NCBI GenBank assembly: GCA_016930515.1
Contig: JAFGGO010000086.1
Location: 1-32,024 of the forward strand
Length of the DNA stretch: 32,024 nucleotides
Direction: 5' to 3'
Source of the DNA: Promethearchaeota archaeon
GTDB taxonomy: Archaea > Asgardarchaeota > Lokiarchaeia > Sigyniarchaeales > SOKP01
Below are positions 3,801-25,288 of this stretch, one piece after another. The translations under genes and the position numbers were made by a program. The notes below the pieces were generated by a model that was given only the letters and a program-made list of their open reading frames with translations, did no database searches and was not told where the DNA came from. Numbering within the stretch: the first letter of the stretch is position 1; every line of letters begins with the position of its first letter.

Positions 3801-5043
3801 AAAAATAGACGGTTGCTTTACCGTCCGTGATCCTCCTTCCGTCTACATCTTTTACAACGATGGTAACGTCCGCTGCCCTTATTCTTTCTTCTAATAATTC
3901 AAAAGCAAGCTCGGTTCTTTCATAGAGCCAGGTCATTTCGTCATCCGATATGCCGTAATCAAAGAATCGCATTTCATCTATATATCCACAATATGCCTGA
4001 CTTGCATCAAAACCTCCTCCTAAAGAGTCTTGTTCCTGAGCGATTATCAAACCACCACTAGCAATTATGATCGGACTTCCTGGATTGCTATATATAAGGC
4101 CATCTGTAGGAAGGTTATTCGTATAAATATGGGTGCCCGAAGTGCCTCTACGCCATACGTAAAAGCTCCATTCTTGGATGGATGGAGCATCCATTAACAT
4201 GTAATTATGATTCGTTCCGGTCGTCCCCGATATGATATATTCAGTACCCGCGGATTGCCTCTTGGCCCAAAAGCATATTGTAAAGTCCGTAAGGCCGTTC
4301 AGTAAGGTATAAGGCGCGCTCATGTAAGCTGCTGTTTGCGTGTCGTTAAATTTTATAGATTTTCCATTAACACTTTCTTCTTTATAACCTACTTGTGGGT
4401 TTACACCCAATCCATAAAGCGTGGCATCGTGATCGTAAGCAGAAGGATTTACTACCTGATGACCCATTTTATCCTTTACGATACTCGTTGATCCTAACAC
4501 GGTATCGTCGTCAAAAGTATACCACGCCCTACCAAATTCATATTCCTTGTAATAGGAAGGATCGTACGAACACGTGGTGTTTCCATAATAGAGATAAGTA
4601 TCGTATTCGCTCGCTTGGGCGCTTATATTTGTTTTAAACCAAATACGCGCCGTTGTACCGTCTAATGTACAGTAATAATCCCTTAAAACACCATTTTCTA
4701 CTATCCGTATATCACCTAAATCTGCCTGCATTTTATCTGGAATTAGATCGGTGGTATCAATTTCAATATATGTCCGAAAATTGGTCAAATTATCGTCATT
4801 ATTATTAGTAAGATTAATGCATCGCCTAAACCGAAAATATTCGTTCCACCACGGATCCAAGCCCTCTCCTGCGCTCACGCTAATTGAGCTAGAATCCTCT
4901 TCAATTCCAAAATAGTTTTCATTTTCTTTGGTTACGTTAATTTTAAAAGGAGTAAAGATCCAAAAGGATGCGAGTAAAAAAACAGTAATGAATCCAATAG
5001 TGGATAATTCTTTCGATTTATTTTTTATATTTTTTATTTTCAT
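862..5043 (-). CDS. Giant membrane-anchored surface protein: N-terminal hydrophobic segment, DUF2341-like, LamG/ConA-like and Ig-like repeats, C-terminal TM and basic cytoplasmic tail
   Basis: 1393 aa. WWNEYFRFRRCINLTN...DLGDIRIV...YLYYGN (DUF2341-like); WYTFDD...FTICFW...QEQDSLGGGFD...GYIDEMRFFD (LamG/pentraxin-like); TM FYLIMIISAVVAVAGSLGAY followed by RRIPKFIKK. Confidence 0.8.
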   Translation of the reverse strand: MKIKNIKNKSKELSTIGFITVFLLASFWIFTPFKINVTKENENYFGIEEDSSSISVSAGEGLDPWWNEYFRFRRCINLTNNNDDNLTNFRTYIEIDTTDLIPDKMQADLGDIRIVENGVLRDYYCTLDGTTARIWFKTNISAQASEYDTYLYYGNTTCSYDPSYYKEYEFGRAWYTFDDDTVLGSTSIVKDKMGHQVVNPSAYDHDATLYGLGVNPQVGYKEESVNGKSIKFNDTQTAAYMSAPYTLLNGLTDFTICFWAKRQSAGTEYIISGTTGTNHNYMLMDAPSIQEWSFYVWRRGTSGTHIYTNNLPTDGLIYSNPGSPIIIASGGLIIAQEQDSLGGGFDASQAYCGYIDEMRFFDYGISDDEMTWLYERTELAFELLEERIRAADVTIVVKDVDGRRITDGKATVYFWNASDNTQLIQSHTAGYDGTALFTDVAYDNYTITVNYTKTLPDLSVKKLQIYNSSNKGGDIEFSGLIYTEHLITDLWTIDFRVLDANGIRVNMGYIVIYDEDDSALANLTLDANGEARFIWENRTGGYDYSIYYINSDITPRITLIKEGTVRPVDKTDTLIVSEKNKKNSGESEYEVQESLYVNGSSLISRGENTVIDARIEMTGMNTGIDIVQVEFYDIDLGSTEEIIDYKSYSDSRTELSLVYRAAEDYDYDVYGIKLDVVGSNSSECLGVIKITLTYARVEEITVDIARMNIKIVDSQFFNPVTGLTVKVYLTGTETLVSNSLKTGADGFARGQSTGMAFWYNISLDYNITIWQTQSLQYQFYVNQSDQSYDSSLLWGYNYSLPAGSIDLILAVRFGDDNFITRFTNGTEEGSPIQEYLWGQDIDISIIFSYSDNGETGPWYGDEGPDSDVTCTIYDQSKVVVYSQDMSQDGDGIYSISIDSSLLSAGYEGNYYEVWITALKYTYFPPKEDIRVVKINPLPTGLTLYEYDPSDPTPDELAKKPTSKKYFASVYYGRTLNITMRYFDSSSGTTLSPDIYSFYWEDDSGAISGNLIQDTIHTNYWVLPFESLQATDSREYSIRVTIGLENHSIKEDYEFFITVLAKHTEVNGSSRVTPKFEASIWVREEVLYYFEYNDSDDSTRLGNLDEFSAEIFYEDDDGNETFVFSTLLDESAEKIHILDVGTGDLSVGTYNIYIAFQKTQYVSKTVIFTLNVLNRPIYTGYEEIFTSIEQGSAYRITLNLTDPSNSSVPITGANIYITGSFGNLSFTETQTPGIYYLDFPTSRYDTFFQPITIRGRIYMEKELHETTEISVVLTIEMPKVGGIPTFYLIMIISAVVAVAGSLGAYRYVQLRRIPKFIKKGKALIKAINSKGSLSKSMGYPSKEEFLAKMFEDRWKIHDLSLRDKLGVTKDKKLGKTIGAGAGGDLKNIKGGDDV

Positions 5044-16127: not shown

Positions 16128-17399
16128 TCAAGAGAGTTTTGCCACTTCCTTGCATAGGAGAAAAACGGCCAGGTGGTTGGGAACCTCTATCACGTCTCCT
16201 TGAGAATAAGGGCCATAAGTTTGATCCTTCATTGTCGTTGGAGGCACAGTGGTTTCTATAATCTGGAGCTTCTGCGTTTCGGAACTGCTATAGAATACAA
16301 TTGGATCTAGCTCTTCGCTTTGCTCGTTGAGTGGATTAAACCAATCGAGCTGATCCCGCGTTAATTCTTGAACTTTAAACCCAGATTTACCGTGAAGCGA
16401 ATCAGGGTAGCGAATGAGCCTATGAACATCTATAGTGACAGGTTCGTCAATTTCCACGCCAATTTCGTGCGCAATGGCCTGCAAAAACTTGACCCAGGAT
16501 TCGCGCCCCAATCCTTCCACATCCCATATATTTGCTGTGCTAGTGCTTGAAAAGGTATTAAGCAATTTGATTCTTGAGTTTATAATGTTAGTTACGACAT
16601 TTGATTTCAGGCCTAATCTTGTTAGCGTATTTTCCAAGAGTTCAAGTGGTTCGTTTAATATTTTTTCTAGTCGAGTAGCGATCTTACAAGCCCATCCAAC
16701 ATTTTCCTTTCGGAGACCGTAAAAAACACCAGATTTTTCCTTGAAACCTAGAATATCAAGGGATAAATTATTTCCACTGAGGTAATCTGCGATTTCTCTC
16801 CTCCCTTCGCTTGAAAGAGCTCTCATCTTTTCGTTTTCGACCTTGATGTGATATCCTCGGTGACCGGAAAAGGCAATTTTTAATTCTGATTCTTCGAGTC
16901 CAAAATCGGGAATTAGAAAGTCGTCCACGAGCGAGATAATTGATCTTTTAGCGACTTCCAAGCATTGCTCACAAATCCAAGAGAAGGTCTTAAACCTCGT
17001 GCTTCCACAAGAGCATTTTTTCCCCGCCATGCCTTTACCCTGCTTACCACAATCTCTACAATACCAAAAGTCATGATTTTCCTTACATGGCGTGTAAAAG
17101 TGGTCTACATCGATATCGATGATGAAATCGCAACCAAGATAGCCCTTGTTATCCATTTCCGAGCGATCGGGATTTTTGTAAATTGTTCCGCTCGAATAAA
17201 CATGTCTTGGTCCCTCTTGAATTAAGTATTTACTCAAGAGAGCCGTTGTATCGAAGCCCATGTGTCGAATCATTATTTGTCGATCCCAAGGTATGAATCC
17301 AAATTCTCTGCTTCCAAATTGAGCCACGCATGCAATATCTTGTCCAATATTACGATAATAAGCTTGAAATAATCGCTTAAGAAACACCTGCTCGCTCAT
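16128..17399 (-). CDS. priS: DNA primase small (catalytic) subunit
   Basis: REFGF, DFIIDIDVD, FSGHRGYH and IDEPVTIDVHRLIRYPDSLHGKSG motifs; Cys-rich Zn insertion. Confidence 0.95.
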   Translation of the reverse strand: MSEQVFLKRLFQAYYRNIGQDIACVAQFGSREFGFIPWDRQIMIRHMGFDTTALLSKYLIQEGPRHVYSSGTIYKNPDRSEMDNKGYLGCDFIIDIDVDHFYTPCKENHDFWYCRDCGKQGKGMAGKKCSCGSTRFKTFSWICEQCLEVAKRSIISLVDDFLIPDFGLEESELKIAFSGHRGYHIKVENEKMRALSSEGRREIADYLSGNNLSLDILGFKEKSGVFYGLRKENVGWACKIATRLEKILNEPLELLENTLTRLGLKSNVVTNIINSRIKLLNTFSSTSTANIWDVEGLGRESWVKFLQAIAHEIGVEIDEPVTIDVHRLIRYPDSLHGKSGFKVQELTRDQLDWFNPLNEQSEELDPIVFYSSSETQKLQIIETTVPPTTMKDQTYGPYSQGDVIEVPNHLAVFLLCKEVAKLS

Positions 17400-22246: not shown

Positions 22247-22606
22247 CTATTTAAAATCGGATTTTTGCACTTTTTCTCTGGCAAATAAAGATTTGAGATA
22301 ATCGGTTACAAATTGAAGCCTTTTTTCAAATGGTAAAGAATCATCTAATACCATTTTTCTCATGAGCGCTTGATATTTACCCTCTACTTTTTCGATTAGC
22401 GTGTTGTTTTCGGATTGAATGATTCGAATTTTGGGTTGTTTTTGGATGAAATCAATCAGTTTTAACCATTTCTCCGCGTCATTGGGATTTATGCCTATTT
22501 CTTTCAACCTGCTCTTTGGAAAAACATCTTGTTGGCTATCGATAAACTTAAAAATTGCTTCAATTCGTTCTTGGATGGTTCTTCTTTTAGGTTTTTTGCT
22601 CGACAT
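22247..22606 (-). CDS. Putative winged-helix DNA-binding protein
   Basis: Basic N-terminus and HTH-like KSRLKEIGINPNDAEKWLKLI followed by a beta-hairpin; divergent from the EutA-fusion gene. Confidence 0.5.
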   Translation of the reverse strand: MSSKKPKRRTIQERIEAIFKFIDSQQDVFPKSRLKEIGINPNDAEKWLKLIDFIQKQPKIRIIQSENNTLIEKVEGKYQALMRKMVLDDSLPFEKRLQFVTDYLKSLFAREKVQKSDFK

Positions 22607-22659
22607 TATTTTTTAATCCTAAATTATTATTGTGTTTTTAATATATAAGCTTTGGTACG

Positions 22660-22683
22660 TTATTGGATCTTGAGATCTAATAA
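22660..22683. promoter_or_regulatory. Palindromic putative operator between divergent genes
   Basis: TTATTGGATCT-TG-AGATCTAATAA: 11-bp arms with one mismatch, flanked by TATA-like tracts (about 22641-22648 and 22691-22697). Confidence 0.5.
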
Positions 22684-22792
22684 ACAAAGGTTTTTAAGAT
22701 CACATTTTATTGTAAATATTGTGAGTTATGAATGATTAGAATTTTAAAACGGGATATATCACTTACCTTGATCGGAAATTGAAGGAAAGAAC

Positions 22793-25288
22793 ATGAATAA
22801 TAAAGAAAGAATGGCATCTATTAGCATAAACATTGATTCGCAGAAAAATGCTTTAATTTATTACGTGCGAGAGGTGCTTGGGAAGGAGAATCCAAACGAA
22901 ATTGATTCACTAGAGAAGAAATTTACAGAGAAATACAATACACTGCTTGAACAAAACATTCACGAAGACATGGTTGATCTCGAAAAGTTTTATCAATTAA
23001 TCCGCTTTTTTAAACCAGCTTTATCGGAAATATTAAAACCAGGAAAAAGTTTCGATATGGCATGCGATCTTGCCTTGCAGAGTTTTAATGTGCCCCTAAA
23101 TCGAATTCGCCAGCAAATCAATGCGGACTATCAAACTACAAGTCAACGCACGAAAACTGGTCCAATCCTTCCGGGAACAAATAAATCACTGACGATAAGT
23201 TTCGTTTGTGCATCTTGTAAGGAAGAAATTGAGATCCCACAAGTGTTACAAAATAAAATATTGAACGGTCTTGAGAATTTTGAAAGACCTATTCACCACG
23301 GAAACCCCATGGAAATTAAGATCTCTCGAATCGTTCGGGATACATCTGAAGACCAATCAGTGAAAAAGATCGAAAAAATTGAGATCCCACCTGCGGAACT
23401 TTTAATGGGTCACATGAACACTTCTGAGCGAAATGTGGAATATTTAAAATTAATAAGCGTCGGAATTGATATAGGTTCTTCCACATCGCATTTAGTATTT
23501 TCCCGCTTGACGTTACAAAGAGAGAGAAGTTTTTTTAACATGACTAATCGGTTTAATTTAATCAATCGAGAAATTATCTACAAGGGAAGCATCCTGATGA
23601 CACCTTTATTAAGCAAAGAAGACATAGATATAGAAGCCGTGATTGAATTTTGCAAGAAAGAATACGAAAACGCTGGTATGACTCCAGAACAAGTCGACAC
23701 GGGTGCAGTTATCGTGACAGGAGAGACTGCCAAAAAACAAAATGCAGATCTTATAGTAGAAAGGTTATCGTCTGAAACAGGAAAGTTTGTAAGCGCTACT
23801 GCAGGTCCAAATTTCGAATCGTTATTAGGAATAATGGGAAGTGGCATGGTAAAATATTCGTCAGAAACCCAGAAGACCGTCATGAATGTCGATGTAGGAG
23901 GCGGAACAAGTAATTTGGCCATTGCTTCAAATGGAGTCGTGCATAGTTGTTCGTGTATTAATATCGGGGGGAGGCTGTTAGGGATAGATAACGACTTTAA
24001 AATCTGGAGAATTGATGGTCCTTGCGAATTCTTAATGAAAGAATTGAATATGAACTATAGGATTGGTGATATAATCCCAGAAGTAGATGTAAAAAAAATT
24101 GCTCACGAATTTGCTAAAGCTCTAGTTGAAGTAATGCAAGGTCCTGCCACGAGTAAAATAGCAAAATGGTTAATGATGACCGCTGATTTGGATGTTTCGA
24201 TCCCCGTTAATGAATATTCGTTTTCAGGGGGGGTTGCTGAATTTATATATTCTACGGAATATTCGTCAATATTTTACAACGATATTGGAAAATACCTTGC
24301 CGACGAAATAAAAGCGCTTGTAAGCACCCTTGAACTCCCAATTATAGAACCCGTTAATAAAATAAGAGCAACGGTGATTGGCGCAGGATCCTTTTCCTTA
24401 TCTGTATCCGGATCCACATGTTATTACGATGAAAACATCCCACTTCCTATAAAAAATGTACCTGTTATCACGATTCCGTTTAAATTAAACGATTTGACCA
24501 AAAATAAAGACGCTTTAAAAAATCAAATCGACTTAACATTAAAAACATTTGACATGGAAGAAGGAAAGGATCTTTACGCTCTTTATTTCAAGGAATTGAT
24601 AAGACCAACTCCAGAGTTCATCGAAGCGCTTGCGAACGCACTACCAAATTCAATCGCGAAAAAGTCCTTGATCATTATCATACTCAGATTCGACGGCGCA
24701 AAAGTTTTAGGTCTTGCTTTAAAAAAAAACACACAATTACGAGAAAATCTTTTTTGTTTGGACGAATTAGAATTAGAAACAGGAGATTGGATTGATATTG
24801 GTGCCGCACTCAAGCATAAAGACGCCTTCCCAGTTACAATAAAGAGCTTAGTATTTAATCAAAACAAACCATTTATTCAAACCGAACAAGATAAATTAGA
24901 TATTGATAAAACTCTTAATGCGTTTGAAGATTTTCAACAAAATCACGAGGGATACGAGAAATTATTGATTTTAAATTCAAAGGGAGAAATCGAGTTATCC
25001 TCAGATCCAAATTTCTGTACTGCTGAAGAAGCAAGAAATTTATTAAGTGCTTGGAAGGAACATAAAGCATTTTTTACAATTGGAGATAATCGATATCCAA
25101 TATTGAGTTCTGAAGAGCTTCAATTTGCCGCAGGGAGCAACCAATCGAATGGATACATAGTAGGATCAAAAACTAAAAATAATCGATATGCACTAGTAAA
25201 TATTACCAAGGGACCCATATTAATGAGACCTAACATTGCAAGAGTTGCGGCAATTGATGTAAATAAATGGTCGTGGGATTTGATTTAA
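22793..25288 (+). CDS. Multidomain protein: helical and metal-binding N-terminus, EutA-type reactivase (ASKHA/actin-like ATPase), C-terminal profilin-like domain
   Basis: EutA motifs SVGIDIGSSTSHLVFSRL, TPL, DTGAVIVTGETAKKQNA, FVSATAGPNFES, NVDVGGGTSN, IGGRL, FSGGVAE, IRATVIGAG, GDWIDIG and PVTIKSLVF, followed by about 140 extra residues. Confidence 0.85.
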   Translation: MNNKERMASISINIDSQKNALIYYVREVLGKENPNEIDSLEKKFTEKYNTLLEQNIHEDMVDLEKFYQLIRFFKPALSEILKPGKSFDMACDLALQSFNVPLNRIRQQINADYQTTSQRTKTGPILPGTNKSLTISFVCASCKEEIEIPQVLQNKILNGLENFERPIHHGNPMEIKISRIVRDTSEDQSVKKIEKIEIPPAELLMGHMNTSERNVEYLKLISVGIDIGSSTSHLVFSRLTLQRERSFFNMTNRFNLINREIIYKGSILMTPLLSKEDIDIEAVIEFCKKEYENAGMTPEQVDTGAVIVTGETAKKQNADLIVERLSSETGKFVSATAGPNFESLLGIMGSGMVKYSSETQKTVMNVDVGGGTSNLAIASNGVVHSCSCINIGGRLLGIDNDFKIWRIDGPCEFLMKELNMNYRIGDIIPEVDVKKIAHEFAKALVEVMQGPATSKIAKWLMMTADLDVSIPVNEYSFSGGVAEFIYSTEYSSIFYNDIGKYLADEIKALVSTLELPIIEPVNKIRATVIGAGSFSLSVSGSTCYYDENIPLPIKNVPVITIPFKLNDLTKNKDALKNQIDLTLKTFDMEEGKDLYALYFKELIRPTPEFIEALANALPNSIAKKSLIIIILRFDGAKVLGLALKKNTQLRENLFCLDELELETGDWIDIGAALKHKDAFPVTIKSLVFNQNKPFIQTEQDKLDIDKTLNAFEDFQQNHEGYEKLLILNSKGEIELSSDPNFCTAEEARNLLSAWKEHKAFFTIGDNRYPILSSEELQFAAGSNQSNGYIVGSKTKNNRYALVNITKGPILMRPNIARVAAIDVNKWSWDLI

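Follow-up and report, generated by a model that had tools for sequence, protein, structure and literature searches.

EutA belongs to the ASKHA/actin superfamily and reactivates the B12-dependent ethanolamine ammonia-lyase (EutBC). Profilin, the classic actin-monomer binder, is almost always a free-standing single-domain protein, and the profilins of Asgard archaea are key evidence that a eukaryote-like regulated actin system predates eukaryotes; the stand-alone Asgard profilins were reportedly the subject of work by Akil and Robinson in 2018. Here we describe a gene in which these two families are joined. It lies on contig JAFGGO010000086.1 of the Promethearchaeota archaeon (Lokiarchaeia) assembly GCA_016930515.1, and the 32,024 nucleotides (nt) of this contig are referred to below as the window. 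A single uninterrupted reading frame at 22793-25288 on the forward strand encodes 831 amino acids (aa), and the product is a cytoplasmic multidomain protein that consists of an Asgard-specific N-terminal module, an actin-fold EutA-family ATPase, a short linker and an Asgard-type profilin domain. The fusion is a new domain architecture built from two known families. A preceding sequence-only reading of this DNA did not know the architecture as described, and neither a EutA-profilin fusion nor a function of Asgard 'EutA' was described in the literature that we searched.

Bacterial EutA (PF06277; NCBIfam NF007991-NF007994) resembles the 831-aa protein in that the latter matches the full length of the family model and retains intact ASKHA ATP motifs. 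The Asgard protein differs in having an additional N-terminal module of 218 aa, a small partner gene that is conserved and, in the source lineage, a profilin domain, and in scoring below every NCBIfam equivalog cut-off; moreover, EutB and EutC are missing from the source genome, and EutB from its relatives. Unfused Asgard 'EutA' proteins of ~700 aa (Promethearchaeum syntrophicum MK-D1 P0095, Lokiarchaeum ossiferum P0057/P0083 and Odinarchaeota P0018) share the N-terminal extension with its CxxC...H knuckle and have a core 56-61% identical, and the divergent partner gene is also found in MK-D1 and at locus L054. They stop at ...KSLVFN without a profilin domain, however, and the fused forms sit on longer branches. 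The stand-alone Asgard profilins of known structure (Odin 5ZZA, Loki-1 5YED/5YEE, Loki-2 5ZZB, Thor 7PBH and Heimdall 6YRR) have the same fold, topology and three-strand motif as the C-terminal domain and are related to it by profile homology, and close stand-alone paralogues of the fused domain occupy the usual DUF2110/gelsolin locus. These profilins are single-domain proteins of 120-150 aa, whereas the fused domain is the C-terminal module of an 831-aa protein, with predicted actin binding. Among the 256 Asgard profilins surveyed in 2021, N-terminal extensions were at most 25 residues long (PMC8410842).

The EutA-family core and its N-terminal extension

Pfam model PF06277 aligns end to end with aa 219-689 (profile positions 2-475 of 475; 450 bits against a cut-off of 27; E value 1.1e-134). 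The match stops at nt 24859, and the family therefore ends at ...KSLVFN. The sequence-only reading had placed a complete EutA-like core at about 23450-24856, ending at PVTIKSLVF, with the frame running on for ~140 aa; the Pfam match at nt 23447-24859 agrees with this, and 142 further residues were counted. The phosphate-1 (GIDIGSST), phosphate-2 (DVGGGTS) and adenosine (SGGVAE) motifs are all intact, and residues D226/G228/T231, D367/G369-G371 and S478-G480/E483 are invariant across 53 relatives, the 831-aa protein included. The scores stay below the NCBIfam EutA equivalog cut-offs (best 395 bits against 598; others 227-283 against 769-952). Foldseek matches of the full model include Ppx/GppA, MreB, PilM, HgdC-type activators and EutJ. 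A PDB sequence search with the N-terminal extension and core returned no solved relative, and no EutA structure was found by sequence. Together, these results support a complete EutA-family ASKHA ATPase fold with intact nucleotide-binding motifs, for which ATPase activity is predicted.

The core is preceded by 218 aa (aa 1-218) that have no counterpart in bacterial EutA and are conserved in the ~700-aa unfused Asgard relatives. The N-terminal 215 aa have no significant family in Pfam or NCBIfam searches, and a protein-atlas look-up with the extension gave no leads. AlphaFold2 (AF2) modelling of the full-length protein, which had been proposed with the sequence-only reading, gave a predicted local distance difference test score (pLDDT) of 78.7 and separated the core, linker and profilin domain. 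In the model, a helical bundle spans aa 1-117 and is followed, after a disordered segment, by a small beta knuckle at aa 133-179; the ASKHA core then occupies aa 216-686, ahead of the linker and the profilin domain. The CxxC...HH knuckle is built of strands at 133-138, 145-147 and 174-179. Its residues C139, C142 and H168 are invariant in the 53 relatives, and position 169 is H or C. This pattern suggests a zinc site, and the knuckle may thus bind metal.

The C-terminal domain has a profilin fold

The C-terminal 142 aa have no significant Pfam or NCBIfam family. We searched 1.8 billion representative proteins with a profile built from seven fused domains (A2) and obtained 31 matches, nearly all of them stand-alone proteins of 120-140 aa. 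An alignment of 30 sequences from these matches (A3) served as input for an AF2 model of aa 696-831 and for a PDB profile search. The model has a mean pLDDT of 91.5 and a predicted template modelling score of 0.84, and its topology is H-EE-H-EEEEE-H, that is, a helix, two strands, a helix, five strands and a C-terminal helix. This corresponds to the profilin sandwich, in which a 7-stranded antiparallel sheet carries both terminal helices on one face.

All of the top 50 Foldseek matches of this model in the PDB are profilins, and the first five places are taken by Odin profilin, Loki profilin-2 and Loki profilin-1, with or without actin (5zza_P at 7.8e-8; 5zzb, 5yee, 5yed). VIA-align against 48,161 representative chains placed Odin profilin first (Z 16.4; root-mean-square deviation 2.2 over 116 residues), followed by Loki-1 at Z 15.0; lower scores went to other profilins (Z 10.8-12.2), roadblock/LC7 proteins (9.2-10.8) and longin/GAF-type proteins (at most 8.6). 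The A3 profile matched every solved Asgard profilin (5zza_P 5e-12, 7pbh 1e-9, 5yed 4e-6, 5zzb 5e-6 and 6yrr 1e-3). By BLASTP, the fused domain also matches the two stand-alone profilins of its own genome (E values 3e-12 and 8e-16), which themselves match Heimdall, Odin and Thor profilins (6yrr, 5zza, 7pbh).

What sets profilin apart from roadblock and longin is a three-strand motif, which takes the place of half the central helix and contacts actin (PMC10933270). In the AF2 model of the fused domain this motif is present, with strands at domain residues 65-68, 71-78 and 82-87 following a helix at 49-60, and it holds 6 of the 24 residues that are invariant among fused domains. Aromatic residues are kept on the N- and C-terminal helices (F16, Y26, W131 and W133). 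A roadblock/LC7 identity was ruled out by the three-strand insertion and by Z scores of at most 10.8 against 15-16.4 for Asgard profilins, and longin and GAF identities by topology and by Z scores of at most 8.6 on the same scale. The evidence thus supports a genuine profilin homologue. The sequence-only reading, which had sketched the secondary structure of this stretch, likened it to profilin and named profilin, roadblock and GAF as the folds to compare, has held up: the sketch agrees with the modelled elements, and an alpha/beta/alpha profilin sandwich came out best.

Some further profilin-like proteins were seen. The source genome encodes a 223-aa protein (G000:C23; L056 1413-2084, reverse strand) in which an N-terminal profilin-like domain (weak Pfam Profilin match, E value 0.078) is followed by a Ser-rich linker and a short domain at the C terminus, and proteins of 217-248 aa that match the same query occur in 8 related genomes. 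In P0131 (1125 aa), four separate stretches match a short part (positions 47-75) of the profilin-domain profile.

Recurrence and evolutionary history of the fusion

A survey of the fusion across Asgard genomes, suggested in the sequence-only reading, showed that it recurs: it is present in about 10 protein clusters from independent assemblies, alongside more than 3000 unfused relatives of ~700 aa. Of all relatives, fused or not, nearly all of the best 120 are ~700 aa long and end at ...KSLVFN; among the unfused members are those of the cultured MK-D1 and L. ossiferum and one protein with an Odinarchaeota label. The fusion is likewise a single continuous frame in the same-genus genome G003 at 77-85% identity, on a contig that ends within the gene, and in the same-family genome G013 as a continuous frame of 899 aa. 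Fused proteins from NCBI, JGI and ENA assemblies also include P0002, P0005, P0008, P0014, P0036, P0040 and P0060. Because the frame is shared by G003, G013 and these seven further proteins, the junction is, judging from the compared frames, not an assembly accident. In a profile search of a set of 5.8 billion proteins, all longer proteins with this profilin subtype belonged to the EutA family; a word search of long proteins with one sequence of the domain retrieved close kin only, and the profile search was needed for the wider set.

Between lineages, fused domains are 36-49% identical, and 24 columns are nonetheless invariant. The fusion is conserved and appears to be under selection. Linker length differs among fused relatives, between about 12 and about 60 aa, and is 12-15 aa in the 831-aa protein. 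Pro-rich stretches (TPPTPP, GPPPG) precede the profilin domain in P0008 and P0040 (A1 columns about 760-800); the 831-aa protein has none.

In a tree of profilin domains the fused domains form one clade (94/87), joined by P0123, a contig-edge fragment. Its successive sisters are the stand-alone P0124 and P0126 (98/98), and the own-genome profilins P0121 and P0122 fall in a different clade. P0126 adjoins a DUF2110 gene and a gelsolin gene (L004), which is an ordinary profilin locus with no EutA nearby. Since the fused domains form one clade beside stand-alone proteins in the usual locus, the profilin domain was captured once, from a working stand-alone profilin paralogue. We also considered that the gene had been split, with the closest stand-alone profilins lying beside EutA-like genes; this idea was rejected, as the P0126 locus lacks EutA and P0123 is a contig-edge fragment.

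A tree of the N-terminal extension and core gave a different picture. Fused proteins fall in three places, P0008 is nested within an unfused clade, and monophyly of the fused forms is rejected (delta lnL, the log-likelihood difference, 98; approximately unbiased (AU) test p 2e-41). Given that the profilin domains form one clade whereas the EutA parts do not, the EutA-profilin combination was later either moved or rebuilt on another EutA-like backbone, and kept. Seven of the eight fused proteins share D209N, P560T/S/K and I649L/V/F at sites where conservation among unfused members is at least 93%; P0008 lacks these changes. Among unfused members, 291 of 690 columns are at least 90% conserved.

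The EutA-like gene is patchily distributed, occurring in 11 of 41 related genomes and in 4 of 24 from the same family. Within one genus, G000 (the source genome) and G003 have the fused form and G001 has an unfused form (C243:309-2369) that is just 58% identical; two fairly complete genomes of this genus, G004 and G005, lack the gene. Such patchiness within a genus suggests transfer or differential loss.

Possible roles of the fused protein

We hypothesize that the profilin domain targets the EutA-like ATPase to Lokiactin, a reading to which we assign a probability of roughly 40%. Under this proposal, the domain would keep the ancestral binding of monomeric Lokiactin or of filament barbed ends through its three-strand face, and would thereby tether the ATPase to the actin pool. 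If EutA/DdrA-type reactivases and other ASKHA switches are a guide, the ATPase could then perform ATP-driven, chaperone-like work at the actin site, and its client might be either actin or a partner associated with actin. The small conserved gene that diverges from the fusion may encode a local regulator or subunit. The fusion would thus act as a 'Rosetta stone' that ties the large orphan Asgard EutA-like family to the actin cytoskeleton. Asgard profilins bind actin in vitro (PMC8410842), and one of them was significantly enriched with Lokiactin in co-immunoprecipitation (PMC13716822). The source genome has four actin-family genes, and its main Lokiactin is 88-100% identical across relatives.

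Several observations weigh against this proposal. Actin binding by the fused domain is predicted from homology, the domain is only 11-19% identical to solved profilins, and by itself it does not reach the Pfam Profilin model PF00235. The genome retains two ordinary profilins, so the fused domain would be free to change partner. No actin or actin-regulator gene adjoins the fusion in four loci, and in MK-D1 the unfused EutA-like gene lies ~350 kb from the nearest profilin. The long branches of the fused forms could mean relaxed instead of new constraint. Finally, the fusion is rare, and what it tells about unfused members may therefore be limited.

The domain could alternatively act within its own polypeptide, docking in cis on a barbed-end-like groove between the two lobes of the core. 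It would there control nucleotide exchange, ATPase activity or self-assembly in the way that profilin controls actin. The core does have an actin-superfamily fold, and the linker of 12-15 residues in the 831-aa protein holds the domain close to it; the three changes common to seven of the eight fused proteins are also in line with such regulation, as are the long branches, which would be expected if the core had co-adapted. We nevertheless consider it unlikely, as other fused lineages have linkers of about 50-60 residues, which demand no fixed cis contact, P0008 carries the profilin domain without the signature changes, and EutA is far diverged from actin.

Equally doubtful is a repurposed adaptor, in which the profilin fold would have given up actin binding to become a generic module for docking or dimerisation, or for binding phosphoinositide-like lipids or proline motifs, and would bring the ATPase to other sites such as membranes. 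Profilin, roadblock and longin share a core that serves many partners (PMC10933270), and roadblock proteins reach Z scores of up to 10.8 against the domain. The conserved F16, Y26, W131 and W133 lie on the face with which eukaryotic, Heimdall and Thor profilins bind polyproline (PMC8410842), the linkers of P0008 and P0040 are Pro-rich, and two canonical profilins are already present in the genome. Set against this, actin-binding Asgard profilins are clearly closer to the domain in structure than any other match, and the actin-contacting three-strand motif is both retained and conserved.

Another possibility is that the protein is a genuine cobalamin-enzyme reactivase for an adenosylcobalamin enzyme other than ethanolamine ammonia-lyase (e.g. 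a methylmalonyl-CoA-mutase-type isomerase), with the profilin domain an accessory of little functional bearing. The sequence-only reading saw no eutBC in the window and listed eutB, eutC and other B12 enzymes for a genome search. That search, in the source genome (4.0 Mb, 190 contigs, 94% complete), likewise found neither EutB nor EutC, whose genes normally adjoin that of EutA, and EutB occurs in none of 41 related genomes, 11 carriers of the EutA-like gene included. Because these proteins are missing, the ATPase is, as far as gene content can tell, not an ethanolamine ammonia-lyase reactivase in the source organism. The genome does encode 21 B12-binding domains, among them two mutase-like sets of large and small subunits, which together with PF06277 membership over the full length would suit a reactivase of another enzyme. 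However, both mutase-like sets are accompanied by their own MeaB-type G-protein chaperone, no B12 gene adjoins the EutA-like gene in any of seven loci, and the gene is present in just 11 of the 41 related genomes; the N-terminal extension, the partner gene and the many highly conserved columns (291/690) are also unlike a niche metabolic accessory. We regard this reading as highly improbable. The two mutase-like sets, at L012 and L014 (G000:C61 and C174), each comprise a methylmalonyl-CoA-mutase-like large subunit and a 137-aa B12-binding subunit, and in L012 a MeaB/ArgK-type GTPase gene is next.

The chance that a sequencing or assembly error joined two adjacent genes is negligible, given that the same continuous frame occurs in at least eight independent assemblies at 36-81% identity and with differing linker lengths, and that the junction has no need for a stand-alone start or ribosome-binding context.

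A natural fusion of profilin with an actin-superfamily ATPase provides a concrete hypothesis, open to testing, for an Asgard family that is abundant and very conserved and is currently mis-annotated as ethanolamine ammonia-lyase reactivase although the client enzyme is absent. The fusion hints that the archaeal actin cytoskeleton is where this widespread family of ATPases works. Potentially, the whole orphan Asgard 'EutA' family (more than 3000 relatives) could serve the Lokiactin cytoskeleton by acting on actin with the energy of ATP, for instance as a chaperone or in nucleotide exchange or nucleation, and not be a cobalamin reactivase. This broader idea is rather unlikely; were it true, the profilin fusion would be the form in which an actin-recruiting subunit became covalent. 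Standard annotation is blind to the fusion because the domain has no Pfam match, and profilin-domain fusions may therefore be under-counted in inventories of the Asgard cytoskeleton.

Genomic neighbourhood and partner gene

The features of the gene and its flank are collected in Table 1. The EutA-like gene is single-copy and the sole EutA-family gene of the source genome. The partner gene that lies directly upstream and diverges from it is conserved at three fused loci (L049 6123-6914, L050 6153-6899 and L051 1019-1756) and at two unfused loci (L052, that of MK-D1, 4465-4848, and L054 4499-4864). In fused loci of the P0005 type its product has an extra C-terminal extension of ~130 aa without a known family. 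The 119-aa protein itself has no significant Pfam match, and a protein-atlas search gave weak winged-helix-like leads only, on which it is probably a small helical or winged-helix-type protein. The region between the two genes has only short, weak inverted repeats in AT-rich DNA, and we claim no operator.

Table 1. Positions in the window of the fusion gene, its domains and the adjoining divergent gene.
Feature	Position	Strand	Basis or remark
Whole gene, 831 aa (P0001)	22793..25288	+	N-terminal extension, EutA-like ASKHA core, linker and profilin domain in one open reading frame
N-terminal helical bundle, aa 1-117, Asgard-specific	22793..23143	+	Six helices, H3-H117, in full-length AF2 model; no Pfam family
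Small beta Zn-ribbon-like knuckle, aa 133-179	23189..23329	+	Invariant columns in 53 sequences; strands in AF2 model
EutA-family ASKHA ATPase core, aa 219-689	23447..24859	+	PF06277 over full model length, E value 1.1e-134
Flexible linker, aa 690-703	24860..24901	+	pLDDT below 50 at aa 688-699
Profilin domain, aa 704-831 (modelled as aa 696-831)	24902..25285	+	AF2, Foldseek, VIA-align, BLASTP
Divergent partner gene, 119 aa, no family	22247..22606	-	61-72% identical to gene at same position in fused and unfused loci
Divergent intergenic region, 186 bp, AT-rich	22607..22792	.	Between partner gene and fusion gene

The stand-alone profilins of the source genome are encoded in tandem elsewhere (127 and 140 aa), divergent from a DUF2110 gene (G000:C126; L001 1027-1869 on the reverse strand and 1962-2750 on the forward strand). 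The gene for P0126, from another lineage, shows the same arrangement, beside the gelsolin gene of L004.

The other genes of the window are unrelated to the fusion and encode GINS, PriS, PriL, Hsp20, TBP, a methyltransferase, an alpha/beta hydrolase, an HdrD-like protein and a thiolase-fold enzyme. PriS (window 16128-17399, reverse strand), whose gene adjoins those of Gins51 and PriL, matches the C-terminal domain of Gins51 weakly at its own C terminus (E value 1.5e-4).

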